From positions 1-64,000 of the IMG/VR virus record IMGVR_UViG_3300037400_002732: 64,000 nt of DNA. The stretch is one strand, 5' to 3'. Within the stretch, counting starts at the first letter, position 1. Every line of letters begins with the position of its first letter. A program made the translations under genes and the position numbers. The stretch comes from a virus. Lineage: Duplodnaviria; Caudoviricetes. The notes below the pieces were generated by a model. That model did no database searches and was not told the origin of the DNA. It saw only the letters and a program-made list of their open reading frames with translations. This document shows positions 8,187-25,425 of the stretch, one piece after another.

Positions 8187-9259
8187 ATTCCATGATTCCG
8201 TTTATGATTTCTGAATGAGGCAATATAGTCTTTGCCGTACGTTTTGGCAACATAATTTTCATATTCAGAACAATCAACAATGATTTTAACTTGATTCTGA
8301 ATCATGCACTGATGTTTTGCCTCATATAATCCGTCTAATCGGTGATTGTATGGGTTAATCATCTGCTTATTTGAGTCTTTGTCCTTGAAGAACTGTCGTC
8401 CCTTCAACTCAATAAGTTGACCATCGACACAGAAATCAGGATTATACCAATGAGTCTTACCGTCATATTCATACGTGAACCGAATGTCTGGCTGGTATTC
8501 AAAGGTAATCTTATGATCGGTTAGCCAGATAAGATACGCCACCTCATAAGAGCTATCAAAGTTCATGCCATTGTATGTGTATTTGTGATGTGCTTTGTCA
8601 CTGACTTGTTTACACTGCATAGGAGTAGATACGCCATAACGCTGTAAAGAAGTTTCTTGAGCTTGCTCACGATTGTTATACGTATGGGTTCCATACCGTT
8701 GAATCTTAGTCTCGTTAGACTTTTGGCCAATGTATTCATAATACGCTTCCACGGAACCATACTTGTCAATCAATGTTTCAAAGCACTTATCGCGATTATT
8801 GTATGTAGCAGAACCATGTCGGCGTAATCTAGTTTCAGAGCACTTTTGACGAAAGTCAACCATGTGCGACGGATGTTCAACACCATAGCGAGCCTTCATA
8901 GTCGCCTCACGAGCGTCCTTAGTAAGCTTACACATTTCAGATGCGCTACCATACTTCTCCGCAATAGCTTGATTGCATTTCGTTTGGCGTACTTCTAAAT
9001 AGTTATCACCATACCGTTCCTTCATGGTCTTATCATAATTCATTGCATAAGATTCGGTTTTATGTGCCTTACTTAACGCGCATTTATGGCACACAAAAGG
9101 ATATGAAATTTTATCCAAATTCTTTACTGACAATGAACCGCATTCAGAGCATACAAAGCTAAATTTCGCTCGTCTATATGCCGTACGTGGTTTCAACTCG
9201 TTAGCTTGGTTTAAATCATCAGCTGACGAAAGATGTGCGCATATATTTGTTTTATCCAT
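8168..9259 (-). CDS. Free-standing putative homing endonuclease: Zn-ribbon, (K/R)YG repeats and C-terminal PD-(D/E)XK nuclease
   Basis: CSEC..CHKC; about 7 repeats like TMKARYGVEHP; FDSSYE..YNPDF..LIELKG; start placed at MDKTN just after the structured leader. Confidence 0.75.
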   Translation of the reverse strand: MDKTNICAHLSSADDLNQANELKPRTAYRRAKFSFVCSECGSLSVKNLDKISYPFVCHKCALSKAHKTESYAMNYDKTMKERYGDNYLEVRQTKCNQAIAEKYGSASEMCKLTKDAREATMKARYGVEHPSHMVDFRQKCSETRLRRHGSATYNNRDKCFETLIDKYGSVEAYYEYIGQKSNETKIQRYGTHTYNNREQAQETSLQRYGVSTPMQCKQVSDKAHHKYTYNGMNFDSSYEVAYLIWLTDHKITFEYQPDIRFTYEYDGKTHWYNPDFCVDGQLIELKGRQFFKDKDSNKQMINPYNHRLDGLYEAKHQCMIQNQVKIIVDCSEYENYVAKTYGKDYIASFRNHKRNHGICITEK

Positions 9260-9264
9260 AAGAA

Positions 9265-9374
9265 ATGACCCGTAGCGGACTAATTTGGCGTTCATTCCAC
9301 TACGGGCCATGTAATAAACATCACCACAGTACATTGAAGAACGCCAATTATCCAATGTTCTGCTTTAAGTTTAT
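9265..9374 (-). ncRNA. Kissing-loop 5' leader A with ATAAACT promoter
   Basis: P1 9327-9362 and P2 9265-9310; loops UUGGCGUUC / GAACGCCAA are complementary. Confidence 0.7.
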
Positions 9375-9381
9375 ATGATCG

Positions 9382-11886
9382 CTAAATATTGTGGCGATCT
9401 TTCAATTCGGCGAGCTTGCCATCGCCCCAAGCACGTAAAATTGACTTGCGTGGCGCACCAGTCAAATATCCAGTAATGCGACGTACGCGGACGAATTTAT
9501 TTTCATCAGTGCAATGGCATTTCGGACATTCATTGTCGATTATTCCGTGGAACCCACATTCCAAACAGTCGTCTGAATCCATGGTCACCGTGAAGTAACC
9601 CAGATCACCATCATACATGGTATCAATGACCGCCTTAACCGCGTCCACATTCTTACTCAAATCTCCATTCATCTTATAATAGAAGATGTGTCCAGCATTC
9701 GACAACGCATGGAATGGAGCTTCAGTCTTGATCTTGTTTTCAAGCGTCGTATCCAACGAAAAATCCATCATGTGGGAATTTGTATAATACCCCTTACCAA
9801 AGATACGATACAAGTCTACATCAGCGAGTTTCTTTTCGTTCTGGAACTTATGCTTGTCAATATTCGCGAATCGACCAGCAACCGCTTCTGCCGGAGTAGC
9901 AAAGCAAGACCAGTTCAGATGAGTTTCCTTCTGACATTCGTCACAGAAGTCGCGAATATGCTTTACAATAGACACAGCAAGGTCATGAACATCAGCATCG
10001 ACGCCGTAAGTCTTGCTAGTAAGCAATGTAATAGTTTCGGCGATACCAATGTAGCCGATACTTAGTGTAGACTGCTTCATTACTTCACCAATCTTGTCAG
10101 TAATCGCATGAGGCTTGTCGTCGGACGTCAAATACAGTCCTTGTTGCATCGTAAACGGATACTTTTCATAGGTCTTTTCAGCAATCAGCTTGAAACGGTC
10201 AATCAAGCTACCCTTCGCATCTTCGAGCATGACGTCAAGCTTTTCGAAGAACAGTTTCACACGAGCGTCTTGCGTAGATTCCTCGATATGCGCTTCAATG
10301 GCAAGACGTGGTAAATTAATCGTATGGAACGCCAAGTTGCCACGTCCAGTAGTCTGCTGGGTGCCATTAACGTTGCCAATAACACGGGTACGACAGCCCA
10401 TTGTACTAATAGTCGTATTTTCGATAAGCTTGCGCAGTTGCAGCTGTTTACCATCATAGCTGACTACTTCCCAGAAATCGGTCGGTGTCACTTGGTATTC
10501 ATATACAGTGTATTGAGTTTTGTCAATACGGTCAAGAGCTACCGTATCATTCGTTCCGCGAACCTTGAATACAATCGTTCCAGAAGCATCAATCGTCTTC
10601 ACGTTATACTTGACGTAAGGCAGATTAAACTTCGAATCTACCTTTACAAAGTTCGGATAAAATCGACGTGCAAGACAATGGATTGCGTCGATATACAAGT
10701 CAAAGTTAGGATCGGTTTCGAGCTTAGTGTAACCCTTCATAAGCTTGAAAATCAATATCGGGAAAATCGCCGTAAGTCCATCACCCATACCTTCGTACTG
10801 GGCTCTTATCAAATTCTTGCTAGCCATACGACCGCAGTTAGACGTATCGAGGCCGAAATTTAGTGACGAGAACGGAACTTGGTTACCTGATCGAGACTGT
10901 AACGAGTTAAGATTATGTACAAGAGCTTCCATCGCTTGGTGCGTATCGTCATCAGTAGTATCAATAGCTTCATCAACACAGTCTTGTGGGAACATTGCAT
11001 ACAACGAAGCCACCGGAAGATTCATTGAAACACCTCGGTCTCTTAGTAATTCGATCAAGCGTTTCTTGACTGTCTTGAAACGTCCAGTAAATTCGCTGTA
11101 CTGTGGATCGCCAGTTTTCTTAGCGTAGCTATTAAGTTCCTTGGCCAGATTCTTTAGAAATGAACGATCCACGAAAGGAGCCATTTCAAAATCGAAATTG
11201 TCGCAAGCAATGCCACCAAACTGCTGATTCGACTGCAACTGAAGAATGACGGCAGTCAACGCGGTCGCCGATTGTATTGACTGGGCCGGACGCTGAAAGC
11301 CAGTACCAGAGTCAAAGCCACTCTTTAGCAACTTTCCTACCGGAGCAAACAAACAGTTAAATGTAAGATCGTACTGGTTCAAGTCATGGATATGCATGTA
11401 ACCGTTTGTGTGTTCTTCCGCATACTTACGGTTGACAACATCCAACAAGTTAAACATCTTGTTGACTTCGCTGGCAATCTTACCATACATGCCAGCCGGA
11501 GTTCCGCCAGATTCATTGGCATTGTCTCGAAGAATGTTAGAACTCGGCAAGTCAGCTTGCTTAATCTCGCGAATAATACGCATCACTTCGGACTTGATCA
11601 TTCTGATGCGGGTACGTTCACGACGGTATTCCTCGAATGCGACAGCAGTGTCCACGTACTGGTTATCCTTCAATACCGCATAGATGGTATCTTGGATAGT
11701 TTCGACCGGAACGGTCTTCTTGCCTAGTAATTCCAAGCTTGCAATTACCTTGGCCACCAAGTCATCCAGCGTTTCATCACAATACTGCTCGTGGGATTCC
11801 TTGAACGCCGCCTCGATGGCGTCGTAAATATGTTTTGGTTCAAACTTACGCTTTCGCGTATCACGTTTCTCAACTTTAAGAATCAT
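9382..11886 (-). CDS. nrdD: Anaerobic (class III) ribonucleoside-triphosphate reductase
   Basis: N-terminal ATP cone, HIHDL, QVPFSSLNFG, MGCRT, YYTNS, CLECG..CPKC, RRITGYL glycyl-radical motif. Confidence 0.97.
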   Translation of the reverse strand: MILKVEKRDTRKRKFEPKHIYDAIEAAFKESHEQYCDETLDDLVAKVIASLELLGKKTVPVETIQDTIYAVLKDNQYVDTAVAFEEYRRERTRIRMIKSEVMRIIREIKQADLPSSNILRDNANESGGTPAGMYGKIASEVNKMFNLLDVVNRKYAEEHTNGYMHIHDLNQYDLTFNCLFAPVGKLLKSGFDSGTGFQRPAQSIQSATALTAVILQLQSNQQFGGIACDNFDFEMAPFVDRSFLKNLAKELNSYAKKTGDPQYSEFTGRFKTVKKRLIELLRDRGVSMNLPVASLYAMFPQDCVDEAIDTTDDDTHQAMEALVHNLNSLQSRSGNQVPFSSLNFGLDTSNCGRMASKNLIRAQYEGMGDGLTAIFPILIFKLMKGYTKLETDPNFDLYIDAIHCLARRFYPNFVKVDSKFNLPYVKYNVKTIDASGTIVFKVRGTNDTVALDRIDKTQYTVYEYQVTPTDFWEVVSYDGKQLQLRKLIENTTISTMGCRTRVIGNVNGTQQTTGRGNLAFHTINLPRLAIEAHIEESTQDARVKLFFEKLDVMLEDAKGSLIDRFKLIAEKTYEKYPFTMQQGLYLTSDDKPHAITDKIGEVMKQSTLSIGYIGIAETITLLTSKTYGVDADVHDLAVSIVKHIRDFCDECQKETHLNWSCFATPAEAVAGRFANIDKHKFQNEKKLADVDLYRIFGKGYYTNSHMMDFSLDTTLENKIKTEAPFHALSNAGHIFYYKMNGDLSKNVDAVKAVIDTMYDGDLGYFTVTMDSDDCLECGFHGIIDNECPKCHCTDENKFVRVRRITGYLTGAPRKSILRAWGDGKLAELKDRHNI

Positions 11887-12014
11887 ACATTCCTCAAGAG
11901 TGTTTAAACATTTCCTCTAACCGCCCATCGCGGTATGGATAAGAAATTAGTTCGTTCGGTAGTCGTTCGTTTATCGGTTTCGGCTCCCAACTTTTCTGGC
12001 CAAAAAACAACAAT

Positions 12015-12062
12015 ATACCATATATTGTTGATAAGGTGTTGACATCTTCCAATATATGGTAT
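12015..12062. promoter_or_regulatory. Tandem NrdR-box-like operators upstream of nrdD
   Basis: ATACCATATATTGTTG (12015-12030) and TTCCAATATATGGTAT (12047-12062), 32 bp apart, resembling acaCwAtATaTwGtgt. Confidence 0.65.
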
Positions 12063-12101
12063 AAGTTGGCGAAATTGAGCGAATTTCGCTAATGTTATTT
12101 T

Positions 12102-13670
12102 TTATTTACTTTTGCCAGCGTGTTCTGCAGCCACGATATGACCGTCGGCACGAGCCACCATGGAAGCATTCTTGATGCTCTCGATGCGCTTGTTGACCGC
12201 CGTCTTGAAGTCGTCGATCGTGTAGCCTTCCTTGTACAAGTCCACCAAGTCGCTGATAATGCCAGCGATGTGCGCATGCGTGAAGGTCGATTTAATCATC
12301 ACGTTAACGGTCTTCTTGAACTCTTCGTTGGTTTCCGACATCCATTCGGGCTTCTCGGCACCGATGCACTTGTAACGCTGAGTGATAACGTCGATGACAC
12401 GTTCGAACGAGTCCGGATTCTTGACGAGGATAACTTCGTCGATACGACCGTTTCTCGTCTTGATAGTCGAGTTGATCTTCTGCGGGTCGTTGATGGTCAT
12501 GATGATAATGCCAGAGAACTTGCTAGAGTTCGTCTCGTCGATGCACGTAATGAACGTGGTCGTCAAGGTGTCCTTCTTACTGAAGTCGTTGCCGTCGATA
12601 TCATCGAACACAAAGATACTGCCAGGGAACATGTTCAAGATACGGAACACGCTGCGGATCTTTCCAGTATCGTTGAGCGAGTCTGCAGAAATCCAGAACA
12701 CCGGAACGTCAGTAAACTGCATCATCAACTTGTGAATAGACACGGTCTTACCGGTGCCTGGGTCACCTTGGATAATGTAGCCGCGACGACGCTTCGACTT
12801 AAGAACTGCGCGGCATGTGCGCTGGATGTCGTCGAGGTCGATGTTATGAATATCGAAGTTGATATTCTTACGAGGCTCAGTATGGAAGTGGCCACCGTCA
12901 ATCTTGATCAAGTTGGACTTGATGTCGATGGACGAAATGTAGTTGGCGTAGATGATGTGGACAACGTCGTCGAGAACATCAGTAGTTTCTTCGCCGTCGG
13001 AAGTGTCTTGCAGCCCAAACAAGTCGGCATTGTACACGCCGAGATTGATGTAGCTATATCCAGCTTCTTGGCTGACGTTGTTTTCCTTATTCTTCTGGTT
13101 GAAGTAATTGACTTCGATGCCTACGTTCACCTTGCGATACTTGGCAAGGAGGTAGACCGTAATCATAGAGCCACTGGAAGCTCCGCCAGCGTTAGGCGGC
13201 GTATGCGTCTTGATAATCTGGAGGCCGTACTTTTTCTGCATTTCCGGCTTCATTTCGATCAGTGCGCGGCAGATGTCGCATGTCGAGTCCATCTGTTCCG
13301 TGTGGATAGCTTGTCCGTTCTTGTAACCCATGAACTTCGCGAGCTCGTCGTAGTCTGTATGCACTTCATACTTCTGCGATACGAACAAGTTGTTAGCAAT
13401 CATGCTTGCCTTACCAAGATTCAATGCGGTTTCAGCAAGCTCCGCGTAATCCTTAAGGGGGCCCTTGGCGTTTTCCTTGACAACCTCGATCACGCTTTGC
13501 GCAAGGTTAGAGCCAACATTGATCAATTTCTTTCCAGTGTCTCCGGAAAGCTTATTCTTGAGATACCTAAGCTTTTCCTTGCCGTTCTTTCCTACCCAAA
13601 GGTCACTGTCAATTTCGATATTGAGAAGCATGCTTCCCAAATCGTCGAGTAAATTAGAACCGATTCCCAT
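12102..13670 (-). CDS. AAA+ ATPase with an uncharacterised N-terminal domain
   Basis: Walker A GDPGTGKT, Walker B FVFDDID, MTIN sensor, RNGRID Arg finger. Confidence 0.85.
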   Translation of the reverse strand: MGIGSNLLDDLGSMLLNIEIDSDLWVGKNGKEKLRYLKNKLSGDTGKKLINVGSNLAQSVIEVVKENAKGPLKDYAELAETALNLGKASMIANNLFVSQKYEVHTDYDELAKFMGYKNGQAIHTEQMDSTCDICRALIEMKPEMQKKYGLQIIKTHTPPNAGGASSGSMITVYLLAKYRKVNVGIEVNYFNQKNKENNVSQEAGYSYINLGVYNADLFGLQDTSDGEETTDVLDDVVHIIYANYISSIDIKSNLIKIDGGHFHTEPRKNINFDIHNIDLDDIQRTCRAVLKSKRRRGYIIQGDPGTGKTVSIHKLMMQFTDVPVFWISADSLNDTGKIRSVFRILNMFPGSIFVFDDIDGNDFSKKDTLTTTFITCIDETNSSKFSGIIIMTINDPQKINSTIKTRNGRIDEVILVKNPDSFERVIDVITQRYKCIGAEKPEWMSETNEEFKKTVNVMIKSTFTHAHIAGIISDLVDLYKEGYTIDDFKTAVNKRIESIKNASMVARADGHIVAAEHAGKSK

Positions 13671-13933
13671 TAGTTCTCCTTTATGCTAGTTCCCGGAAGC
13701 GCCGGAAAGCGCCATGACACGATGTCGTAAACATCGTAGTGAATGCAAAAGTCCTTGTTTTTCGGGTCGTAATCAAATAAGTCATTTTCCTCATCATATA
13801 CAAGATCAACCTTCTTTATTGTTCCATCGAACATCTTGAATTCAACAGGAACTCTCCACGACTTGTCCCATTCAAGCTCATGGTCAAATGGGCCGCATTC
13901 CTTAAAATCCGAATGCCATTCGGTATCAATCAT
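13670..13933 (-). CDS. Hypothetical protein
   Basis: GGAGG SD before MIDTEW; stop overlaps the AAA start. Confidence 0.65.
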   Translation of the reverse strand: MIDTEWHSDFKECGPFDHELEWDKSWRVPVEFKMFDGTIKKVDLVYDEENDLFDYDPKNKDFCIHYDVYDIVSWRFPALPGTSIKEN

Positions 13934-14026
13934 GTTATTCCTCCGTATCCAGGTGACTTTCAGCCCATTCGGTACCACACAGGATGTCAATGGCATAATA
14001 CATGCCCATATTACATCCTTTTTTCA

Positions 14027-14200
14027 TTACTGCTCACCCGGCATGTTGTCTTCTGAAGGTATGCCATCGTCGAACGACACCGTCACCGAAGATTTTGATC
14101 CGCCGTATTTCCATGTGCGGATGAAGATTCTGAGCAAATTAACCGCGAAGGCTGAGAAGAGCACTATTTTCAGCCACTTAATGACATTTTTGTGAGACAT
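14027..14200 (-). CDS. Small membrane protein (57 aa, below the ORF-track cutoff)
   Basis: MSHKNVIKWLKIVLFSAFAVNLLRIFIRTWKYGG...; follows the promoter at 14254-14282. Confidence 0.5.
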   Translation of the reverse strand: MSHKNVIKWLKIVLFSAFAVNLLRIFIRTWKYGGSKSSVTVSFDDGIPSEDNMPGEQ

Positions 14201-14253
14201 CGTATTACAACCCTTATCAGATGTGTTACACTCTTAAATTTTTATTACAATCC

Positions 14254-14282
14254 AATATAGCAATTCAGCGCAAATACGGCAA
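14254..14282 (-). promoter_or_regulatory. Sigma70-type promoter
   Basis: TTGCCG-N17-TATATT. Confidence 0.65.
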
Positions 14283-15011
14283 TAATCTTGCATTCATTTC
14301 AGATATGCGGGCCGGACGGAACGAATCATCGCCAGTAAACGACACCAATTTGCCAGTAGAAACCCCAAGAGAATGTATCATTCCCCTATGGCCGCCCAGA
14401 TGGACTATGTGTTCGGCAGCACCCATATACTCGCGAAGCAAGCACAGTGGGGCTCTCAAATAGACGCAGACCTTGTCGGCGACCTCGTGTACGCGGCATA
14501 TCAGTTCCTTGATGGACGGTTCCGCATCAACGTCATATCTATATGACGGACAGAAGCAAGCAATCCTTACGGCCTTGCTGCCAAACGCCTTGATACGGTC
14601 GATTACCCAGTCGAACTCGAATTTCATGGTCGATTCGAATTCACCTACTATTACGGTAGGGAATTTCTCGTCCCTAGCCGCCATACGGATAGGGTCTACT
14701 GGATAAGATTCGATACTCGAAGACTTGGGTACGTCTGGATGCTTGAAATAGCCGAGGAATATGGCCCTATCGTACGGCTTGTCGAGATATTTCGAGTAAT
14801 TATCGAACCAGTCGTGGAAAATGAATACGTTTTTCTTACCGTTTGCATACCTTACAAGGCCGTCGCCAAACTGGGACACCGACAATTCGGCGGATATTCC
14901 CGGTGCAGCGAACTTGACCTCGTGACCAATCGAGCGGGCCACGGAGCAAGCAAGGCTGTCAAACTTGGATTCACCCTCGAAAGTCCCCAAGTCTCTAGGA
15001 AACACTATCAT
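14265..15011 (-). CDS. Hypothetical protein, possibly glycosyltransferase-related
   Basis: 248-aa ORF coupled by an ATGA overlap to the GT2 gene. Confidence 0.6.
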   Translation of the reverse strand: MIVFPRDLGTFEGESKFDSLACSVARSIGHEVKFAAPGISAELSVSQFGDGLVRYANGKKNVFIFHDWFDNYSKYLDKPYDRAIFLGYFKHPDVPKSSSIESYPVDPIRMAARDEKFPTVIVGEFESTMKFEFDWVIDRIKAFGSKAVRIACFCPSYRYDVDAEPSIKELICRVHEVADKVCVYLRAPLCLLREYMGAAEHIVHLGGHRGMIHSLGVSTGKLVSFTGDDSFRPARISEMNARLLPYLR

Positions 15012-16066
15012 TTTGCCTCTATTTCGGCGAGTCGTTTCGCCTTTTCGACAAAAGCGTCAATCTCCGCTTTCTGATCTGGAGACAAATCTGGAATGGAATA
15101 AAACACTTCGTTGACGAAAGTTGGAATGTAGGCTGGCCCATCTTCCAGCAGAACGGCGTCGAGTATCTTGGTGAAGCTCATTTCGGTTTCGTAGTCCAAG
15201 TCATAGATCGTCGTGTCGATAGTCAGCATGGTCTGCTTAGTACAAGCCCAGCTTAGGCGAACATTTAGTCTACGCTGCTTCTCGTACTTTTCCATTAGTG
15301 ACGACAGTGTCACCTTTCCGGCGATATAACTTTCCAGATCGTCAGCCGTCATGCGACGAATGCATGCGCACAGCTTGCGGTTGGTAGTATAGACGCTAGA
15401 TTTCTGGTATGCCTCTGTATTCACTTGAGGATGGAACAAGTGATACACATGTCCTTCGGTGCGCTTGAGAACGCCGACGAGTCGCTTTATCTTGTATGTA
15501 AACGCATCGTCCTCTGCGCCCCACTCATAGAACTCTTCATCAAACCCATTGACTCGTTCCCAAGTGGATTTCAAGTACATGTTGCACAATCCGGTCTGTC
15601 TCTGGATATGTACACCGTGGAAACAGAACTCGGAATTGATCTGGATTCCACCTAGAAATGAGCGAGTCTGCCCTTCACTGAGATAGTCAACCTCATTGAA
15701 CGGATATACGATTCCGACTTCCGGCGTCTTTAGTAATTCGAGACCAGCTTCGATAGACTTTGCAGCAACGTCGTCGATGTATGCGTCGGCATCCATCATA
15801 ACTATAGTGTCCGTCGTCGCGGATGCTATTGCCATGTTGAGCAATTTAGTCTTGTGGAAACGGCTTCCTTCGGCCACTTCGATACGTCTTACACGCTCAT
15901 TGTAATTGTTTAATTTATCCGAAATAGACGACGAACCTTGTTCCGCGATAATGATTTCCGCGTCAGAAAACAAGGATAGACAACGGTCTAGAACCGCATA
16001 TAAATTGCGTCTACGGAACGAATTCTTGCCATCCATATAGGCAATAATTATCGAAAAATTCGGCAT
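15008..16066 (-). CDS. Glycosyltransferase (GT-A fold, GT2/GT7-like)
   Basis: FSIIIAY, DAD metal motif, GFDEEFYEWGAEDD, HLFH. Confidence 0.9.
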   Translation of the reverse strand: MPNFSIIIAYMDGKNSFRRRNLYAVLDRCLSLFSDAEIIIAEQGSSSISDKLNNYNERVRRIEVAEGSRFHKTKLLNMAIASATTDTIVMMDADAYIDDVAAKSIEAGLELLKTPEVGIVYPFNEVDYLSEGQTRSFLGGIQINSEFCFHGVHIQRQTGLCNMYLKSTWERVNGFDEEFYEWGAEDDAFTYKIKRLVGVLKRTEGHVYHLFHPQVNTEAYQKSSVYTTNRKLCACIRRMTADDLESYIAGKVTLSSLMEKYEKQRRLNVRLSWACTKQTMLTIDTTIYDLDYETEMSFTKILDAVLLEDGPAYIPTFVNEVFYSIPDLSPDQKAEIDAFVEKAKRLAEIEAK

Positions 16067-16080
16067 TCGCGCCTCGATAG

Positions 16081-17787: not shown

Positions 17788-17813
17788 GTACAAAACACTT
17801 GGTATTAAAGCCT

Positions 17814-18653
17814 ATGAACGACTTCGACGATCTTGAAAAACTCAGAAAACTCTCCCGCCCTATCGAACTTCAGGCGGACGCCGAACCAGATGACGACACA
17901 GAGGAAGAAGACCTCGGCGCAGTCGTGAACGACGACGCCATGACAGACCAGCCCTACAACCCAGAAGGCAATGTAAACGTCTACGTTGTCAACGGTGGCG
18001 GAAGTTCTGGTACGCCTAGCAAGAAAAAGCCAAGCAAGCCAGCCATATTCGAGCAAGAGCCGGGTGAAGATTCAGCCGACAGCAATGCAGAAACCGCAAT
18101 GGAATGCGGCCTCGGCCTCAAGATGGGCGGTCTCAAGCTCGGCAAGTCTCTCCGCAACAGCATGGAATGCTGCATGGACATGTGCGACCCCAACTGTGCG
18201 ATAAAATTCAACGTTGGCGACTACGTCAAGCCCACTTGCTGTGAAACCCCAGTCATCCTAGTCGTCAAATGCACGGACGGCTCCAACATCCTCACGGCCA
18301 AGCCTACCGAAGATGCAGCCCAGTGCAGCGAAACTGGATGCTGGCCGGAATTCTCGTTCGAGCAAGACGAGATCGAGCCGATGTCCGAAGTAACCCTCGA
18401 AGACATCTTCAACGTCATGAAGTTCAACGACTCTCCCAAGACGGAAGCTTTCAACGGCGGAGATTACGACGAGACCCCTATGAAGGACGCACAGAAAGGT
18501 GTCCTAAACAACCAGCGTGACAAGAAGGCAGCTACGTTCGACGATATCAACGAATTCATGGAAGACGTATTCGGCCCAGTGCCAGACTATACCGTGAAGG
18601 AAAAGATTTCGCCAGACCAGCCGGAAGAACAGACTAGAAAATTTAATTGGTAG
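17814..18653 (+). CDS. Acidic Cys-containing hypothetical late protein
   Basis: ATAAACT at 17779-17785, then ATG at 17814. Confidence 0.7.
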   Translation: MNDFDDLEKLRKLSRPIELQADAEPDDDTEEEDLGAVVNDDAMTDQPYNPEGNVNVYVVNGGGSSGTPSKKKPSKPAIFEQEPGEDSADSNAETAMECGLGLKMGGLKLGKSLRNSMECCMDMCDPNCAIKFNVGDYVKPTCCETPVILVVKCTDGSNILTAKPTEDAAQCSETGCWPEFSFEQDEIEPMSEVTLEDIFNVMKFNDSPKTEAFNGGDYDETPMKDAQKGVLNNQRDKKAATFDDINEFMEDVFGPVPDYTVKEKISPDQPEEQTRKFNW

Positions 18654-18658
18654 CTAAT

Positions 18659-18763
18659 ATAAACTCATATTATATAAGTTCGTGGTGGTTCTTGTATAAT
18701 GCGTGGTAATTTTTAAATGCCAGTTGGATGCTAACCACCACTTTAAGCGTCTAACTGGCATTT
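18659..18763 (+). ncRNA. Kissing-loop 5' leader B with ATAAACT promoter
   Basis: P1 18668-18701 and P2 18715-18763; loops GUGGUGGUU / AACCACCAC are complementary. Confidence 0.7.
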
Positions 18764-18771
18764 GCTATTGT

Positions 18772-20154
18772 ATGGAACAGCAGTGCGGACGAAAGATAGG
18801 CTTACTGCCGACTAAGGCTCAGATACGGACGATGTACCGTATGTGTGCAGTCGCTCGTCACGCATATAACTGGAAGCTCGCTGTCCAGAATCAAGCCTAC
18901 GAGGAAGCCAAGAAGAACACACCAGAAGGTGAAAAGCCAAAGTGTAAGCTCGGTACTCCTATTGACTGGCATAAGGAATGGTGCATCCACAAGAAGCTCC
19001 CAGAAAACAAGTGGATGACAGAAGTATCCAAGTTCTGCGGCCAAGAGGCCCTAATCGACCTCGGTTCCGCATGGAAGCGGTTCTTCAAGGGTCTAGCCAA
19101 GCATCCACGGTTCCATAAGTACGGCGTAGACGAATCGTTCCGGTGTTCTGGCGGAGTATTCATTGGTCGTGATTTCGTTCAGTTGCCTACGCTCGGCAGA
19201 GTAAGACTAGCCGAGAAGGATTACATCAAGATACCGGACGGTGTGGTGAAGACTCCGATTGCGATGGCTACAGTATCAGTAGACCCTACTGGTCACTGGT
19301 CGATATCGTTCGCCTACCATGTCGATGTAGAACCACTTTATTCGCCCAATACCGAAATTACTTCCGATGACATCGAAGGCATCGACCTCGGTGTGAAGGA
19401 TTCTGGAATCACTTCTAGTGGAATAGTATATTCCAATCCGAAGGCATACCGACGCTATATAGCTCGTATCAAGAGATTGCAGAAGGCAATATCTAGGAAA
19501 CGCAAGAAGTCAAAGAACCGCAAGAAGGCTAGTAAGCGGTTAGCCAAGACTTGGCACAAGGTCACCTGTATCAGAGTGAACCATGCTCACCAGATGACTT
19601 CCGACCTAACTTACAAGTTGAAGCCAAAGATGATTGTGATGGAGACACTTCGACCAGGTAATATGACGAAGAACCACAATCTTGCATCCAGTATCCTAGA
19701 TGCCAATTTCGGTAGAATCAAGGAATTTCTTAAATACAAGTGCCAATGGCTTGGTATCAATCTCATCTTTGCTCCGCAGTTCTATGCAAGCAGTCGATAC
19801 TGCTCGCACTGTGGATGCTACCATAATGACAATTTAACTCTCGCTGACCGTGAATGGACATGCCCGGTATGCGGCTGTCATCATGACCGTGACGCCAATG
19901 CGGCGGTCAACCTCAAATTCTATGGTCAGTGGTTGGCTGGACTCGTCCAGACCGACGAAAATGTTGCGGCGCGATTAGCCGTAGGCGGATGTTCCGCCGA
20001 TGCTTGCCCTTCTGTATATCAGAAGGAAGGTATGACTTTTGTCAACCCCAGAGACCGGAGGTTACAGTTCTTCCTAACGGATGAATCGTGCCGGACTATG
20101 AAGCAAGAACTCAATACATATTATAAACCATACAATAGTATAAACTATGGTTAA
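18772..20154 (+). CDS. tnpB: TnpB RNA-guided RuvC nuclease (IS200/IS605 or IS607 type), no tnpA
   Basis: HTH_OrfB-like N-terminus (ARHAYNW), GIDLGVK RuvC-I, VMETL RuvC-II, CSHCG..CPVCG Zn finger, DRDANAAVNL RuvC-III. Confidence 0.92.
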   Translation: MEQQCGRKIGLLPTKAQIRTMYRMCAVARHAYNWKLAVQNQAYEEAKKNTPEGEKPKCKLGTPIDWHKEWCIHKKLPENKWMTEVSKFCGQEALIDLGSAWKRFFKGLAKHPRFHKYGVDESFRCSGGVFIGRDFVQLPTLGRVRLAEKDYIKIPDGVVKTPIAMATVSVDPTGHWSISFAYHVDVEPLYSPNTEITSDDIEGIDLGVKDSGITSSGIVYSNPKAYRRYIARIKRLQKAISRKRKKSKNRKKASKRLAKTWHKVTCIRVNHAHQMTSDLTYKLKPKMIVMETLRPGNMTKNHNLASSILDANFGRIKEFLKYKCQWLGINLIFAPQFYASSRYCSHCGCYHNDNLTLADREWTCPVCGCHHDRDANAAVNLKFYGQWLAGLVQTDENVAARLAVGGCSADACPSVYQKEGMTFVNPRDRRLQFFLTDESCRTMKQELNTYYKPYNSINYG

Positions 20155-20186
20155 CGCAAATATATTGAGAAATCGGAGCCCTATAA

Positions 20187-20516
20187 ATGAAGCCAAAGCT
20201 TTTCTTTGATAGCGGTTGCCCAGTCTGCTCCGAATACAAGAGGCTTGTCAAGAACAAGCTCGGCGATTCGGTCGAGTACGTACCCATCGAGGCGTACAAG
20301 AGCGACTTCGAATACAATGACGCCAACGGAAAGAAGTACGTAGGTTCAAAGGCTGTCGAGAAGTTGTCGGAAGACTTTCCGGCAATCAAGGACTACGTTT
20401 GGATCCTTCCGGAAAAACTGAAAGTTACTGGACTGAAGGTTGCATACAAGGTAGGCAGCGTCGTCCGCAAGACTATCGCCACGGTGCATCACGGTTGCAA
20501 CTGCGGCAAGCACTAG
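20187..20516 (+). CDS. Thioredoxin/glutaredoxin-fold protein (DCC-like)
   Basis: LFFDSGCPVC motif. Confidence 0.7.
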   Translation: MKPKLFFDSGCPVCSEYKRLVKNKLGDSVEYVPIEAYKSDFEYNDANGKKYVGSKAVEKLSEDFPAIKDYVWILPEKLKVTGLKVAYKVGSVVRKTIATVHHGCNCGKH

Positions 20517-20541
20517 AATTGACCTCCTATGTTAATACAAC

Positions 20542-20566
20542 AAAGCCAGTCGAAAGACTGGCTTTT
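20542..20566. terminator. Bidirectional terminator
   Basis: AAAGCCAGTC-GAAA-GACTGGCTTTT. Confidence 0.85.
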
Positions 20567-20569
20567 CCG

Positions 20570-21112
20570 TTATTTGTCGTTGGCGTCCGTCGAGTACATT
20601 TCCCGGAACTTGTCTATGGTCAAATCGGTATCGACTTGCCGTTCGGCACTCTGTCTGAGAATGTCATCGATACGGTGCAACAAGTCATCCTTGCATTCGG
20701 ACAATACCGCATAGGCCAAGTCATTGTAGTTGGTATTGATCAAGTCCATTTCGTGACGGTGCCGCCTCATGAAATAGCTTACATAAGGGCCGATGTTAAT
20801 CACGAGACGGTCTGGACGTTCACCGACAGATTGGTTGAACACTACTGGCTTGATGTCGTTTGCCGTGCCGAAATAGATTCGTAGCAATGCGCCAGCCACA
20901 AGCAAGGTCAGTCCCTTCGGAACCATCGTCACGTTGCTACGTTCGGCGAGAACCTTGCCGAGACGGCCTTCACGATATTCATTCTCGATTCGATTCCATA
21001 TTCGCTCTCCCATCGTCGCCGTCGGGATCTGCTTGTACAGATCGAGGATGGCTTCGCATAGTGACTTATCGTCACCGCAAAGCTCGTTAATCATGTTGAC
21101 CATCGTTACCAT
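20570..21112 (-). CDS. Hypothetical late protein
   Basis: 180 aa; ATAAACT at 21139-21145 (minus). Confidence 0.7.
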   Translation of the reverse strand: MVTMVNMINELCGDDKSLCEAILDLYKQIPTATMGERIWNRIENEYREGRLGKVLAERSNVTMVPKGLTLLVAGALLRIYFGTANDIKPVVFNQSVGERPDRLVINIGPYVSYFMRRHRHEMDLINTNYNDLAYAVLSECKDDLLHRIDDILRQSAERQVDTDLTIDKFREMYSTDANDK

Positions 21113-21127
21113 AAGCTGTCCAGTGAA

Positions 21128-21514
21128 TTACACTAGTGAGTTTATCAGCTGCAGCGTGTCTTCGCCGTCGTGCATGAGAATGATTGGCATCCTCTCATAC
21201 AAGTTCGGTAGTGAGCCAAGCGTATTGTAGTCAAACCACTCTTGAGCCATTTCCTCCGGATCGTCGTCTGGGTCGCAGTCCTTGGCGAACATCTTTGCCA
21301 AGCATTGAATGCAGAGGTCGGCGTCGTACACCGCGACAAGAACGTTGCATGGCTTCGGTCGTTTCTTCGACTTGCGGAACCTACGGACATACATGCCTAC
21401 GATGGCATCGTCCATGTCGTCTATGAAATAAACGGTCTGGTTCTTGGAAGCCGCAACCTTCTTCTCGATATCGGCCTTTGTGGCCTTGATGTACTTCGGT
21501 GGTTTTCTCAACAT
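21128..21514 (-). CDS. Hypothetical phage protein
   Basis: 128 aa; DDAIVG..AVYD..EWFDYNTLG resembles a common phage family. Confidence 0.7.
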   Translation of the reverse strand: MLRKPPKYIKATKADIEKKVAASKNQTVYFIDDMDDAIVGMYVRRFRKSKKRPKPCNVLVAVYDADLCIQCLAKMFAKDCDPDDDPEEMAQEWFDYNTLGSLPNLYERMPIILMHDGEDTLQLINSLV

Positions 21515-21517
21515 AGT

Positions 21518-22390
21518 CTACCCGATGGCTATCTTGGTTCCGCTGACCGGAGCCAAGTATTTTAACGTCACATGGAGCTGGCCCAGTTCAAACTTGCAGT
21601 CGATGTCGCCACGATCCACGGGTCTGTCGATGCGGTAGAGAACTGTGTGCGTTCCGAGTAGAAAGTTAGGAATATTTATCTGCGCTTGCCACTTGTTTTC
21701 TTCTTTTTTACGTTTACCGCCCTTTTTCGTGCCCTTCGGAGCAGACTGCTTCGCTTCGGCGGACATCATCGATACACGAGGTTCGCGCTTGAACGTGACG
21801 GCAACCTCGTTGTTCTGCGTAAGAACAAGGTCGATATCTTCCTTGGGTATGCCAGGAAGATCAACGAAAAGATGGAACTCGGTATCGGTCATCACGATTT
21901 CAGACGGCGGCTCCGGCAACAATCCTTGCATCGGAGGCGGTTGCTGAGGCTGATTGTTGATAGGAATCGGCATGCCTTGCGGCGGCTGTTGCGGAGGCGG
22001 CTGCTGCATATAAGGCTGTTGAGGCGGCGATGGCGGCGCGTAGTTCGGAGCCATCTGTCCATAAGCAGCTGGTTGCATGGGAGTCCCCGGCGGAAGCTGC
22101 TGTGTCTGTACACCTACACCTCGTCCACGCGGCGGTGCCGAGCTCGGAGGAAGGCCCACGCGACGGTTGAAAGCATCGCTGTTCCTTGCTACTTCATTCG
22201 CCATTTCATCAATGATTCTCGGATTGATCGGAGTTCCACTACCGTCGCTCAATCCGTTGCTGATTACAGATGTATAGTCTGGTTGACCAGTAAAAATAAG
22301 AGTATCGCTCATATCTGACCTTGCTTTAATGTATTCGACATCCACCTTGTGGCCACGAAATAATCCGCTTATAAAGTTCAATAATCCCAT
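21518..22390 (-). CDS. Hsp20/alpha-crystallin domain protein with a Pro/Gln-rich linker
   Basis: FHLFVDLPGIPKEDIDL..IDCKFELGQLHVTL. Confidence 0.75.
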   Translation of the reverse strand: MGLLNFISGLFRGHKVDVEYIKARSDMSDTLIFTGQPDYTSVISNGLSDGSGTPINPRIIDEMANEVARNSDAFNRRVGLPPSSAPPRGRGVGVQTQQLPPGTPMQPAAYGQMAPNYAPPSPPQQPYMQQPPPQQPPQGMPIPINNQPQQPPPMQGLLPEPPSEIVMTDTEFHLFVDLPGIPKEDIDLVLTQNNEVAVTFKREPRVSMMSAEAKQSAPKGTKKGGKRKKEENKWQAQINIPNFLLGTHTVLYRIDRPVDRGDIDCKFELGQLHVTLKYLAPVSGTKIAIG

Positions 22391-23202
22391 TATTCACCAC
22401 AGGCCGTCCTTAGCTCTGCGACTTCCTTAAGCCCTCTCAGTTTAGCAATGGCCTTGGCTCGGATTCTCCTTACCATTTCCTTGCTGATCCGTCGTTCGGC
22501 GGATATTTCGCTGACAGTGTACTCGGAACCGTCAAGAGCATACAATCTTCGTAGTAAATTATTCTCTTCTGCGCTCAAGTTGTCTTCCATCACTTCGCGG
22601 AGCTTGTCCTTGAGGAAGTTTTCGCCATGTTCGGCATCGGTCTGAAGGTCGGACGCTATCGTGTCGCCTACTGTCGTGTGGGTGGCCGAATGGTCGTTAT
22701 TTTCACCTACCATGGCGGAGAACGACGTAGTTTCCCTCAATGCGTTCTCTGCCAGTACGCCATACTTGATTCCGTCCACGCGGCTTCCCTTCTTCTTGGC
22801 CGATAGGACTCGATTTCGCTGCATGACCGGAACACGGACAAGGTCACTCGTATTAAGCATCATCTGCATGTGGCGGCGAACCTCGAACACTGCAAACGAG
22901 CCGAACTTGACCCCAGTTCGGTGATCGAATTTCTCGAAAGCCTCCAGCAAGCCGAGCTTGCCTTCCGAATAGAAATCGTTGATTGGCAATCCGTTCTGTC
23001 GCTTGTAGGCTTTTGCCAACGCCAGTACGAATCTGAGGTTAGACTGTATTATCGCTACCTTGATTTCTTGTTTGCGCTTGAAATCGTGCGATGCTTCGTA
23101 TTCTTCGAATAGTTTTTTCTCAGCTTCGCGGCCAAGAATCTTGTACTTTTTCGTCTCCTCAGTGAGCAGACTTGTGCTGCGATCTTCTACGTACGTTTTC
23201 AC
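22390..23202 (-). CDS. Sigma70-family RNA polymerase sigma factor
   Basis: Region 2 (SNLRFVLALAKAY, EGKLGLLEAFEKFD..G.KF), VRVP, region 4 HTH (SKEMVRRIRAKAIAKLR). Confidence 0.9.
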   Translation of the reverse strand: MKTYVEDRSTSLLTEETKKYKILGREAEKKLFEEYEASHDFKRKQEIKVAIIQSNLRFVLALAKAYKRQNGLPINDFYSEGKLGLLEAFEKFDHRTGVKFGSFAVFEVRRHMQMMLNTSDLVRVPVMQRNRVLSAKKKGSRVDGIKYGVLAENALRETTSFSAMVGENNDHSATHTTVGDTIASDLQTDAEHGENFLKDKLREVMEDNLSAEENNLLRRLYALDGSEYTVSEISAERRISKEMVRRIRAKAIAKLRGLKEVAELRTACGE

Positions 23203-23229
23203 TAATATTCTCGTGAAAAGCTAATAATA

Positions 23230-23261
23230 AATATATATAAATATAATTTGAATTGCAAATT
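23230..23261 (-). promoter_or_regulatory. Sigma70-type promoter of the sigma gene, with the 16-bp element
   Basis: TTGCAA-N17-TATATT (23230-23258); ATTTGAATTGCAAATT at 23246-23261. Confidence 0.7.
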
Positions 23262-23290
23262 TTTATGACCAATGAATAAACTGCAAAACG

Positions 23291-23617
23291 ATGACATCGC
23301 AACTAGATATACATGATCGGCTCGTGCTGAACTTGGGCCAGGAAGAATTCCGAAAGGCCGCCGTGGAGGCCGTCAGCAAGCTAACCACCATCAAGAAAAT
23401 TGACGGAAACAACCGTCGCGTATATGCCGATTTCTCTGTAACAATCAGTTCAAGCATGGACAGAAGGGACTTCGACGTATATCGTAACCGAACTAGCGTA
23501 TTGGTGCTGTCCGTAAGAAAGGACAAGGTAATCAGTATAAGTTATGAATATGTATTTATCGAAGACCACCTCAAATCACTATTGAAGGAAATTAATGGCA
23601 AAGGAACAAGGAATTGA
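23291..23617 (+). CDS. Hypothetical protein
   Basis: 108 aa; ATAAACT 8 nt before the ATG. Confidence 0.6.
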   Translation: MTSQLDIHDRLVLNLGQEEFRKAAVEAVSKLTTIKKIDGNNRRVYADFSVTISSSMDRRDFDVYRNRTSVLVLSVRKDKVISISYEYVFIEDHLKSLLKEINGKGTRN

Positions 23618-23816
23618 GATTGAGGGAGTAGTTACCGAAGAACGTGGTAGCGGCTTCTTCACGGTCGCCCTAGCTAATGGGCACCAAGTCCTCGCTCGTC
23701 TTCGCGGTAAGATGGAGAAGAAGGACAAGATAAAAGTAAACACCGACGACAAGGTTATCGTCGAACTTTCACCATACGACCTTGATCGCGGTCGTATCAT
23801 ATACCGCTACAAATAA
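23595..23816 (+). CDS. infA: Translation initiation factor IF-1
   Basis: MAKEQGIEIEGVVTE..F.V.L.NGH..LA...GKM..DKV.VELSPYDLDRGRIIYRYK. Confidence 0.95.
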   Translation: MAKEQGIEIEGVVTEERGSGFFTVALANGHQVLARLRGKMEKKDKIKVNTDDKVIVELSPYDLDRGRIIYRYK

Positions 23817-23886
23817 CATTATATTTACAAACGAAAAAAGCCGCACCGGTAGCCCGGTACGGCGTTGCTTTCATTTTTAGGGGTTC

Positions 23887-24516
23887 TTAAGCCTTCTTGG
23901 CCTTGGCCTTAGTTGCCTTGACCAATTCCTTGCGAGCTGCCTTGAGTTCGCGGAGCTTGGTCTTCCACTTGTTCAGGCGTTCATCCTTCATGATCGGCTT
24001 CTTGAGCTGCTTCAAGAGGGTAGAACGGCGACCGATCTGGCCTTCAAGCTTAGCAATGGCTTCCTCGGTACGTTCGAGAGTAGTCTTGCGCGGCTTCTTG
24101 ACCTTTTCCGGCTTGGTGACAGCCACGAGCTCGACTTCTTCAATCGGCTTCGGAGCGACTTCGACCGTCTTGCAATTTTCAAACGGTGCGACTTCTTCTG
24201 TCGAAGGTGCGGCTGGCGTTTCTGCTGGCGTTTCAGCTGGTGTTTCAGATGGGGTTTCCACTGGAACGGCATCATTCACCACGGAAACGGTAATATCCGT
24301 CTCAACGGTAGGCGTAGGCGCATCTTCCACGATAGTCGTCGGCTTTTCGCACGGCGTATCTTCGGAAGACGTTTCGGCTACGAGAGGCACGTCTCGCGCA
24401 CTTTCCCACGGATTTTCGGCCACTCCAGTCCTACGTGCCTTGCGCCATACGGCGACCCACACGACGATGAATACTAGGACAGCCACTCCCAAGACGGTTG
24501 CAACAGTTGGTGTCAT
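23887..24516 (-). CDS. Membrane-anchored protein with an acidic linker and basic C-terminal helix
   Basis: N-terminal TM helix; ETPA repeats; AGGAG SD. Confidence 0.75.
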   Translation of the reverse strand: MTPTVATVLGVAVLVFIVVWVAVWRKARRTGVAENPWESARDVPLVAETSSEDTPCEKPTTIVEDAPTPTVETDITVSVVNDAVPVETPSETPAETPAETPAAPSTEEVAPFENCKTVEVAPKPIEEVELVAVTKPEKVKKPRKTTLERTEEAIAKLEGQIGRRSTLLKQLKKPIMKDERLNKWKTKLRELKAARKELVKATKAKAKKA

Positions 24517-24555
24517 ATTTGACTCCTTTTAATGTTAACGATAACTGATGTTAAA

Positions 24556-25317
24556 TTACATTATTTCATTTTCAAGCAGAACTGAAGCAATTCGTTTAAT
24601 TACATTAGCCTTGTCGGCCTTATATTCGCTTGCCCATACGGAAATTACTGTGTAGCCCATTCCTCGAAGCACGTCCAAACGTTCTTTGTCATGTTCCCAG
24701 ATGTCCTTGGCGGTTATATTATGGTGAATAATATCGGTTGCTTGATATTTAGCTGGATTAGCATGCCAGAAATCGCCGTCATACTCAATAATGTACTTAC
24801 CAAAGGTGAAGTCCGGAAATATCCACTTGTCGCCATAAGGAATTGTTTTCATTGACTCAAGTTTACTCGCCGATTCGCCCAAGGATTGACGTAAGTCTTC
24901 GCCAAACTGTAATTGTTCCTTAGAAAAATTAGGCGATACATGTTGATTCCATACTATTGCGCCACTTTTCCACGTCTGCTTAAACCGTTCTGCACGAAGT
25001 TTTCGCTGTTCGGGATCTTTAAATTGCTCATGCGCGTTTTTACTCTGTAACGCTTTAAATTCATCCGAACGAGTCAGACCAGTCATGCCAGATATGACTT
25101 TAGCACGATATGAATCATCCTCCCACAATTTCTTAGAAGCATCTGCAGTAGCCAATTTAATCTTATCTACGGTTTCTTTTGAATGTTTACGACCGAAAAA
25201 CGGATTATTAGCCCCAGTTCGATCGCGGTGCGCGTTGCAATAGCCAGATTTATTTTTGTCACTTATACGGCAACCACACTTCAAGCAATGCTTATTCAAT
25301 TTATGTCCACTAGCCAT
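24556..25317 (-). CDS. Putative homing endonuclease: NUMOD3 DNA-binding motif plus Vsr/DUF559-like nuclease
   Basis: CLKCG..YCNAH; NPFFGRKHSKET (NUMOD3); FPDF..IIEYDGDFWH..D..R...GYTVISVWASE. Confidence 0.8.
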   Translation of the reverse strand: MASGHKLNKHCLKCGCRISDKNKSGYCNAHRDRTGANNPFFGRKHSKETVDKIKLATADASKKLWEDDSYRAKVISGMTGLTRSDEFKALQSKNAHEQFKDPEQRKLRAERFKQTWKSGAIVWNQHVSPNFSKEQLQFGEDLRQSLGESASKLESMKTIPYGDKWIFPDFTFGKYIIEYDGDFWHANPAKYQATDIIHHNITAKDIWEHDKERLDVLRGMGYTVISVWASEYKADKANVIKRIASVLLENEIM

Positions 25318-25323
25318 AAAAAA

Positions 25324-25425
25324 ATCCTACCGGAACTAGCCCTTCCGATAGGATACAACACGCCTAAGCGTGTTTAAACTTAACTACATATCAGCAAGGG
25401 CTAGTTGCTTTTAATAGAAGTTTAT
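25324..25425 (-). ncRNA. Kissing-loop 5' leader C with ATAAACT promoter
   Basis: P1 loop ACUAGCCCU (25397-25405); P2 25324-25354 with loop AGGGCUAGU; extra hairpin at 25357-25374. Confidence 0.65.

Follow-up and report, generated by a model that had tools for sequence, protein, structure and literature searches.

A family of kissing-hairpin RNA leaders preceding selfish nuclease genes in rumen T4-like phages

The window analyzed here, the first 64 kb of the 174.8-kb IMG/VR phage record IMGVR_UViG_3300037400_002732 (G+C content 47.5%), carries three selfish nuclease genes encoding a PD-(D/E)XK endonuclease, the RNA-guided nuclease TnpB and a NUMOD3/Vsr-like endonuclease, respectively. Each gene is preceded by an RNA leader in which a first hairpin, P1, and a longer second hairpin, P2, possess complementary loops. 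Comparison with homologous leaders indicates that the three are homologous rather than convergent and form one family, the predicted fold of which is a kissing-hairpin (double-pseudoknot) structure. The reading that we prefer, in which our confidence is evenly balanced, is that a single leader family constitutes the left end of selfish nuclease cassettes and may also govern expression of the cassette gene in cis.

The source phage is a distant relative of T4 whose terminase is <36% identical to that of any GenBank phage. A DNA search of a phage collection with the window produced no match, and the best terminase matches there were <36% identical. Many bovine gut and rumen sequencing runs contain DNA that is near-identical to the window. 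Homologous leaders were surveyed in 30 related IMG/VR phage records of the rumen T4-like group, which have terminases that are 53–82% identical and genomes of up to 355 kb, and the genes downstream were identified with Pfam and PHROGs. Cassette-free alleles were read from assembled contigs, 95–99% identical to the window, of four cattle-rumen sequencing runs (three DNA, one RNA).

Architecture and covariation of the leader family

The three leaders share the same order of elements: the motif (C/A)ATATAAACT, hairpin P1, the long hairpin P2, a U-rich spacer and the AUG codon, with a P1 loop that is complementary to the P2 loop. In leader 1, upstream of the PD-(D/E)XK gene, UUGGCGUUC is complementary to GAACGCCAA, and in leader 2, upstream of tnpB, GUGGUGGUU is complementary to AACCACCAC (Table 1). 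The chance of a perfect 9-mer match between a 12-nt loop and a 13–16-nt loop is ~1e-4 per leader, and all three fold far more stably than shuffled controls, with z values of -4.4, -5.3 and -4.6 for leaders 1, 2 and 3, respectively. When the entire 174.8-kb genome was scanned for any hairpin with a strong hairpin after it and complementarity between the two loops, the only three cases directly 5′ of a start codon were these leaders. The ATATAAACT motif occurs four times in the window compared to 0.36 expected occurrences, and three of the four are at the leaders. A commoner form, (A/G)AACTGATAAACT, is located 0–41 nt 5′ of most late-type genes, and the leaders of other ATAAACT genes are mostly 0–41 nt long. 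An earlier sequence-only reading of the window had proposed that an identical layout precedes the three nuclease genes and none of the other ATAAACT genes. Both parts held, the layout being present at all three places far beyond chance expectation, and the identities that it had assigned to the three genes were confirmed by Pfam and PHROGs.

TnpB relatives in IMG/VR are preceded by the same architecture, with loops that differ in sequence yet stay complementary. A covariance model constructed from five TnpB leaders (R1) recovered leader 1 at full length with a score of 40 bits (E 3e-7), and also matched five more sites in the related records. The claim that the three leaders have no shared sequence was therefore wrong: a model made only from TnpB leaders retrieves the PD-(D/E)XK leader, and conserved blocks are evident that comprise TATAAACTT, UUU(R)AUGSC...GSCAUUU, the loop frames and UAUGG. 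A second covariance model built from 11 sequences (R2) was run on the 30 related records and identified 29 places in 16 of them. These places together with the L006 leader provided a model-guided alignment of 30 leaders (29 distinct sequences). Model-guided alignments were preferred as MAFFT alignment of type A with type B leaders misplaces the P2 gap.

The loop-loop helix in this alignment displays nine of nine pairs in 28 of the 30 leaders and eight of nine pairs in the remaining two, with ~20 different helix sequences represented. Although the kissing helix is not encoded in the covariance model, 99.2% of its cells are paired, all nine pairs exhibit compensatory changes on both sides, and pairing falls to ~40% when the kissing partners are slid relative to each other. 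Sequence comparison thus finds complementarity that is kept by compensatory change, as expected of an intramolecular loop-loop helix. P1 and P2 covary too, in a comparison that also included the 11-sequence set, and both hairpins were recovered independently by RNAalifold. Overall in the 30 sequences, pairing holds for 97.9% of cells, and both sides have changed in 34 of 35 pairs. The stems contain G-U in preference to A-C combinations by 103 to 5, with G-U accounting for 14% of pairs, and thus it is the sense strand that folds, as the distribution of G-U pairs in the window had suggested previously. The kissing helix comprises 258 Watson-Crick pairs and a single G-U pair in 261 cells.

The consensus leader is ~110 nt and consists of TATAAACTT, an 8-bp P1 with a 12-nt loop, a 10–35-nt linker, a P2 of 15–19 bp with a 13–16-nt loop, and a 5–16-nt U-rich spacer, usually without a Shine-Dalgarno (SD) sequence, which is followed by UAUG. 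The kissing strands are each nine nucleotides long, occupy the 3′ side of the P1 loop and the 5′ side of the P2 loop, and pair in Watson-Crick fashion. The TATAAACTT element is positioned 5–14 nt 5′ of P1 in nearly all members, apart from L033 and L074, in which a degenerate motif precedes P1, and L034, which is considered below. Conserved columns in the 30-leader alignment correspond to the promoter motif, stem bases, loop frames and UAUG, and no invariant core of unpaired nucleotides was found there. The latter argues against a ribozyme or riboswitch and in favor of a role that depends on shape.

Searches of the 64-kb window against Rfam 15 at the gathering threshold returned no matches. At permissive E-values only miRNA-precursor hairpin noise emerged, far below threshold, and no ribozyme, riboswitch, IS605-orfB or HEARO family was among the matches. 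Full-text literature searches found no description of such a leader, and a pattern scan of metagenomes detected only the same TnpB lineages and two likely chance matches (L098 and L100). With P1, P2 and the loop-loop helix covarying in 30 homologues that chiefly precede nuclease genes, the leader is a previously undescribed structured RNA family, as the sequence-only reading had conjectured.

Leader 3, upstream of the NUMOD3/Vsr gene, appears from its alignment to be an aberrant, atypical variant of the family, with short loops and an extra hairpin, and scores only 16.9 bits with model R2. Each of its loops is 7 nt long, and so the 9-nt loop match that was claimed earlier for all three leaders stands for leaders 1 and 2, but in leader 3 includes two closing pairs. 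As shuffled genomes yielded a few 7–8-nt loop matches in the same kind of scan, leader 3 on its own is non-significant whereas its context is significant. The reported absence of an SD sequence similarly is correct for leaders 1 and 2, but not for leader 3 in which an SD-like AGGA is located within the 3′ arm of P2. At minimum energy, leader 3 is predicted to adopt a different, long-range helix in which AGGA-U7-AUG would be left free, and this single copy therefore may act as a switch. In addition, seven nucleotides of the P2 loop region are repeated at the start of the Vsr open reading frame (ORF) at 25309–25317 (AUGGCUAGU) in this copy only; a further possible pairing of the leader 3 P1 loop is therefore with the region of its own start codon.

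Two further observations concern pairing near the leaders and elsewhere in the window. First, the nucleotide just 5′ of the kissing strand (alignment column 35) covaries with pair 7 of the helix (columns 42/108) with mutual information of 1.26 and 97% canonical combinations: A occurs with U-A, C or U with G-C, and G with C-G. This tentative signal, which derives from few independent lineages, may reflect a base triple in the deep (major) groove, or a pre-kiss or alternative intraloop pair. Second, an inverted repeat at 12006–12078, between nrdD and the next gene, contains a 9–10-nt loop-to-loop match (AUAUGGUAUA) between weak 5–7-bp hairpins, with neither strong stems nor ATAAACT.

Table 1. 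Positions in the window of the nuclease genes, leader elements and cassettes.
Feature	Position	Strand	Description
PD-(D/E)XK nuclease gene with DUF7487	8168..9259	-	Between nrdD and nrdG; 3′ end overlaps nrdG start (8186)
TnpB gene	18772..20154	+	HTH_OrfB, OrfB_IS605 and TNB domains
Endonuclease gene with I-TevI-type zinc finger, NUMOD3 and Vsr-like (MTES_1575, DUF559) domains	24556..25317	-	Just after RtcB
Leader 1 motif ATATAAACT	9376-9368	-	5 nt past nrdD stop codon (9382-9384); putative promoter from its position before most late-type genes
Leader 1 P1	9331..9358 (9358-9351/9338-9331)	-	8 bp, 12-nt loop; kissing strand UUGGCGUUC at 9347-9339; aligned to models R1/R2
Leader 1 P2	9265..9310 (9310-9296/9279-9265)	-	15 bp including 2 G-U, 16-nt loop; kissing strand GAACGCCAA at 9293-9285
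Leader 1 spacer	After P2	-	UUCUU (5 nt), then AUG at 9259
Leader 2 motif ATATAAACT	18657-18665	+	3 nt past upstream stop codon
Leader 2 P1	18669..18700 (18669-18678/18691-18700)	+	10 bp, 12-nt loop; kissing strand GUGGUGGUU at 18682-18690
Leader 2 P2	18715..18763 (18715-18732/18746-18763)	+	18 bp including 2 G-U, 13-nt loop; kissing strand AACCACCAC at 18733-18741; 8-nt spacer; AUG at 18772
Leader 3 motif ATATAAACT	25427-25419	-	Read from the sequence
Leader 3 P1	25393..25409	-	5 bp only, 7-nt loop CUAGCCC
Leader 3 extra hairpin	25357..25374	-	7 bp, loop UUAG; absent from canonical members
Leader 3 P2	25324..25354	-	12 bp, 7-nt loop GGGCUAG; SD-like AGGA in 3′ arm; then U6-7 and AUG at 25317; terminator-like by consensus scan
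TnpB cassette	18633..20174	+	Joint 18632->20175 in X2, X3, X7 and X17 contigs (four rumen runs); 21 nt in its place
Vsr/NUMOD3 cassette	24562..25441	-	Joint 24561->25442 in X3 and X7 contigs (two rumen runs); 20 nt in its place; begins directly after RtcB stop codon
Second TATAAACT	20139..20146	+	Inside TnpB 3′ end; 41 nt before ATG of next phage gene (20187)

Cassette boundaries and exchange of cargo

The cassettes are situated directly after phage stop codons, and close relatives among the rumen T4-like phages differ in whether they carry them. Cassette-free alleles lack exactly the TnpB and the Vsr/NUMOD3 cassettes (Table 1), and therefore the promoter, P1 and P2 belong to the mobile unit and form its left end. 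Where the TnpB cassette is missing, the upstream gene continues for ten codons and ends with TAAATG that overlaps the start of the next gene. In the window allele the cassette provides the upstream gene with a different short C-terminus, the stop codon of which is followed by the motif, the leader, tnpB and the right end at 20174. The boundaries that were fixed are those of the TnpB and Vsr cassettes only: window positions 8141–9422 have almost no cover in the four runs, and a distant empty site in G004 was too diverged for fixing boundaries.

The second TATAAACT motif inside the 3′ end of tnpB is probably an embedded promoter that restores expression of the downstream gene. The other two nuclease ORFs also contain sigma-70-like matches inside their 3′ ends, with that in the PD-(D/E)XK gene at 8250–8222. 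The arrangement is similar to that of the T4 seg and mob genes in which promoters that serve the downstream genes lie inside the nuclease ORF (PMC2988022).

Leaders and ORFs have diverged to different extents. The window tnpB is 89.7% identical to the L006 copy at the DNA level from 4 nt before the ATG onward and the proteins are 93% identical, whereas the leaders are only 42% identical and belong to different subtypes, the L006 leader resembling instead the PD-(D/E)XK leader in its loop frames. The L030 and L072 TnpB proteins likewise are 97% identical, but their leaders are 60% identical and possess different P1 stems and kissing sequences. These patterns indicate that leaders and ORFs have recombined at the AUG, with cargo exchanged behind the leader. 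The suggestion that the leader is a shared left-end module of cargo-swapping mobile cassettes was therefore upheld, both by the exchanged ORFs and by the cassette-free alleles.

Approximately 21 of the 30 leaders precede TnpB genes, which represent at least four subfamilies. Five leaders, comprising leader 1, L082 and L076 to L078, precede DUF7487 nucleases and display two different kissing sequences; all DUF7487 loci with flanks that were checked (all but L077 and L078, and including L082 and L076) occupy the nrdD-nrdG site. The remaining leaders are located before a DUF559 plus zinc-finger protein, a NUMOD3 homing endonuclease, a short zinc-finger ORF and two unknown proteins. No Vsr homologue was found in 29 related records. 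Homologues of the window Vsr/NUMOD3 protein in other rumen contigs were examined in four distinct contexts, two of which (L089 and L090) contain a canonical module, and thus this nuclease class also uses the family. PD-(D/E)XK and Vsr relatives that were found by protein searches in IMG/VR (L001–L005) had no module. TnpB is rife in the group, with up to eight genes per phage and ~52 in the 30 records. The second TnpB gene of the genome, near 93 kb and outside the window (~92.8–94.0 kb, minus strand), encodes 402 aa by first-ATG scan in a 403-aa open frame, and has TTATAAACT and a 32-nt leader without the module.

As the 174.8-kb record has no match to a Y1 transposase (PF01797), the TnpB cassettes look like homing elements. 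The absence of this enzyme also bears on the idea that the leader functions at the level of DNA, whether because its hairpins form in single-stranded DNA and serve a Y1 transposase as a left end of the IS200/IS605 type, or because it promotes homing as a signal for recombination or replication. Most instances of the module indeed precede TnpB genes, and the ends of IS200/IS605 elements are strand-specific DNA hairpins. Moreover, a DNA-level role is formally consistent with G-T wobble that is limited to the top strand, and a kissing helix that is almost devoid of G-U is complementary on both strands. Nevertheless, apart from the missing transposase, no P1/P2-like hairpin was noted by eye in two right-end stretches, the same module precedes protein-only homing endonucleases that move via double-strand-break repair, the 14% of G-U in the stems is typical of RNA, and the orientation and distance to the AUG are constant. 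A DNA-level role is unlikely, and we accord it only a very slight probability.

A number of observations were made on the ends of TnpB elements and on other variable segments. At the right end in window 20100–20200, ...GA(U/G)UUAUCGG is common to the copies in other phages, which differ from one another beyond it. The window joint at 20174/20175 reads GAGAAAUC/GG, and an omega-RNA guide would run on into the beginning of the next gene (20187). The UUUAUG just 5′ of the joint in the cassette-free allele is a candidate transposon-associated motif. The TnpB copies at L007, L008, L020 and L022 share 120 nt further left of TTATAAACT, from near TGGGAYGRCAACTGATAAC, with a sigma-70-like TTGATT-N17-TAGATT inside, and so the left boundary of the element is further upstream there than in the window copy. 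A segment at 13666–14004 (339 nt) is absent from contigs of three rumen runs (joint 13665->14005, five shared letters) and is a small present/absent insertion; its 108-aa ORF (13670–13996, minus strand) has no Pfam or PHROG match. In close rumen phages, the region 7985–11683 that includes the 5′ part of nrdG, the nuclease cassette and most of nrdD is replaced by very different sequence with loose ends at 7985 and 11683, which could reflect co-conversion around the endonuclease or an alternative nrd allele there. Finally, the terminase large-subunit match in L048 and L049 extends over ~2460 nt for 548 aa, which suggests that the gene carries an insertion of ~800 nt (intron, intein or endonuclease).

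A putative cis-acting governor and competing explanations

If the leader governs expression, the cassette would bring its own late-type promoter and the rigid P1-kiss-P2 fold at the edge of the ribosome footprint, adjoining a start without an SD sequence, would deny access to 30S subunits and to ribosomes that come from the cistron upstream. P2 and the U-rich tail may also terminate a portion of transcripts. The toxic nuclease thereby would be made at a trickle, independently of the invaded operon. P2 ends 5–16 nt before the AUG in a U-rich context in which an SD sequence usually is absent; ~44% of long ORFs in the genome have one. The SD duplex energies of leaders 1 and 2 are -3.2 and -1.5 kcal/mol, respectively, compared to a genome median of -3.9 kcal/mol.

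Several features weigh against this proposal. Leaders 1 and 2 have no SD sequence for sequestering, the AUG is unpaired in the predicted folds of the window leaders, and SD-like elements follow P2 in L033 and L090. The promoter is 5′ of both hairpins so that the strategy used in T4, in which late transcripts escape the hairpin, cannot apply; in L034 TATAAACT is found after P2. Approximately 30 of the ~52 TnpB genes in the same records, including the second TnpB gene of the genome, lack the module, a distribution that is not explained by a simple throttle. Lastly, the 9-bp helix is hypervariable, is never the same in two copies of one genome and pairs strictly in Watson-Crick fashion. This helix is the feature that a simple governor model least explains.

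The behavior of the helix raises the prospect that it is a programmable address, with a 9-bp code particular to each cassette lineage and copy-specific action, such as sensing or titrating the same cassette in a co-infecting genome, or forming RNA dimers. We regard this as doubtful. Still less probable is a version of address-coded kissing control in which the variable 6–7-nt core of the helix is a specificity code, either for orthogonal regulation of each cassette or for contacts in trans, whether as dimers or through leader RNA that targets a cassette of the same type on a co-infecting genome. Parallels are found in plasmid copy control by antisense RNAs and pseudoknots (CopA/CopT, IncI-alpha repZ) and in phi29 pRNA. 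The ~20 helices in 30 members, the differences between all copies within a genome, the strict Watson-Crick pairing and the divergence of leaders far beyond that of their ORFs in the L030/L072 and window/L006 comparisons are in keeping with such a code. However, intramolecular pairing is kinetically favored and sterically possible, neither an antisense promoter nor a free-standing hairpin gene was seen, and with so many helix types differing copies per genome are expected by chance.

The same P2 and U-rich tail that would contribute to a governor might instead form a leaky intrinsic terminator between the cassette promoter and the ORF, which is a possible although not a favored explanation. In such an attenuator most transcripts would end as a ~100-nt leader RNA, with the P1 kiss pre-organizing the large P2 loop and setting the efficiency of termination; this elaboration is equally a possibility that we do not favor. 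In type III toxin-antitoxin loci and IS200, promoter, RNA, terminator and toxic gene follow one another in the same way, which counts for an attenuator. Nearly all members have a U-rich tract after P2, the P2 hairpin of leader 3 fits the terminator consensus, and many members possess an A/U-rich stretch ahead of P2 that pairs with the U-tract in the manner of bidirectional terminators. Conversely, the evident terminators of the phage have 9–11-bp stems with tetraloops, unlike the 13–16-nt loops of P2, and the U-tracts often are interrupted (GCUAUUGU, UUCUGUAUCU). It is due to these loops and interruptions that the terminator scan misses leaders 1 and 2.

The compact fold also could act as a stabilizer of the mRNA by shielding the 5′ end from RNase E or J, or the coaxial P2 and kissing helices could form an RNase III-type site at which cleavage releases the start region and so activates translation. 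Precedents are the 5′ hairpin of ompA and the RNase III sites of lambda N and T7. P1 is 0–9 nt from the expected start of the late transcript, the spacers between TATAAACT and P1 are 5–9 nt in most members, and a role that is based on shape is consistent with the lack of a conserved unpaired core. Against these points, spacers are up to 14 nt in several members, and a selfish nuclease is expected to be expressed at low levels rather than stabilized. Such a function is considered improbable.

Other candidate roles were discarded. An SD sequence brought near by P2 in the style of T4 genes 25 and 38 is at odds with the inconsistent purine-rich motifs in the linker and an effective spacing of ~15 nt. 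A leader peptide from the AUG in the base of P2 was rejected as frames and stops are unconserved. Sensing of the target by the loops likewise was set aside: the loop 9-mers do not recur meaningfully near cassette ends, in the guide region or elsewhere, and by eye do not match the cassette-free junctions.

Relation to known leaders and implications

Homing endonucleases of the T4 family, including I-TevI, I-TevII, I-TevIII, segB and Aeh1 mobE, are restrained by late promoters and by leader hairpins that sequester the ribosome binding site (RBS), and in seg43(25) of Aeromonas phage 25 the RBS is immediately preceded by a very stable hairpin (PMC2988022). The module described here similarly combines a late promoter with a very stable hairpin before a selfish nuclease ORF, in cassettes that lie between conserved genes such as nrd (PMC2988022). 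As in seg43(25), the hairpin adjoins the start region instead of covering it. The module differs in that two hairpins are joined by a covarying 9-bp loop-loop helix, that usually there is no SD sequence for sequestering, with an SD-like element inside a hairpin arm only in leader 3, and that the promoter is 5′ of the entire structure, rather than inside a hairpin, in nearly all members so that there is no early/late truncation switch. Furthermore, one homologous module is common to unrelated nuclease classes, including the RNA-guided TnpB.

RNA structures at the left ends of transposons, namely the terminator hairpin and RBS-occluding hairpin of IS200 and the fold-back inhibition of IS10 and IS50, also shield a transposon gene from outside transcription and translation, and the IS200/IS605 superfamily includes TnpB. 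However, those structures protect tnpA, do not involve loop-loop pairing and are not common to homing endonucleases. Neither TnpA, which is absent from the window genome, nor, on inspection by eye near the right end, a hairpin similar to those of the left end was found, and the module also precedes genes that are not from insertion sequences. IStrons are IS200/605 tnpB elements that carry a group I intron at their left end, and the omega-RNA is found at the 3′ end. The module resembles these as a structured RNA in a TnpB element besides the guide RNA, but is ~110 nt without a conserved core or Rfam match, and the right end of the element is at 20174/20175.

Loop contacts beside a start codon set translation in the cobalamin riboswitch, which has a kissing loop, and in the activator pseudoknot of IncI-alpha/IncB repZ/repA in which plasmid specificity evolves via loops. 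In contrast, no ligand-binding core, leader peptide or antisense RNA gene was found here, and the helix is longer (9 bp) and forms between two simple hairpins. The two loops of phi29-family pRNA also stay complementary by covariation as their sequence drifts, and pair between molecules to form a ring on the packaging motor. Both systems thus feature a covarying loop pair of one phage RNA, but pRNA pairs intermolecularly and is not an mRNA leader.

The leader provides a new structured RNA family of three helices, all of which covary, including a pseudoknotted loop-loop helix. Genes for RNA-guided TnpB in phages are packaged, and may be controlled, in the manner of free-standing homing endonucleases via a shared, exchangeable module. 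The alleles with and without the cassette are population evidence for TnpB cassettes that behave as homing elements in lytic phages. As the module is small and apparently independent of sequence except for pairing, it is a tractable model of kissing-loop regulation and a possible part for tuning the expression of toxic genes. The strictly Watson-Crick, hypervariable 9-bp helix raises a testable question of specificity. If the helix were indeed an address, the module would be a portable RNA controller for any selfish nuclease, whether protein- or RNA-guided, and a new class of RNA regulator of mobile elements beyond repressive hairpins.

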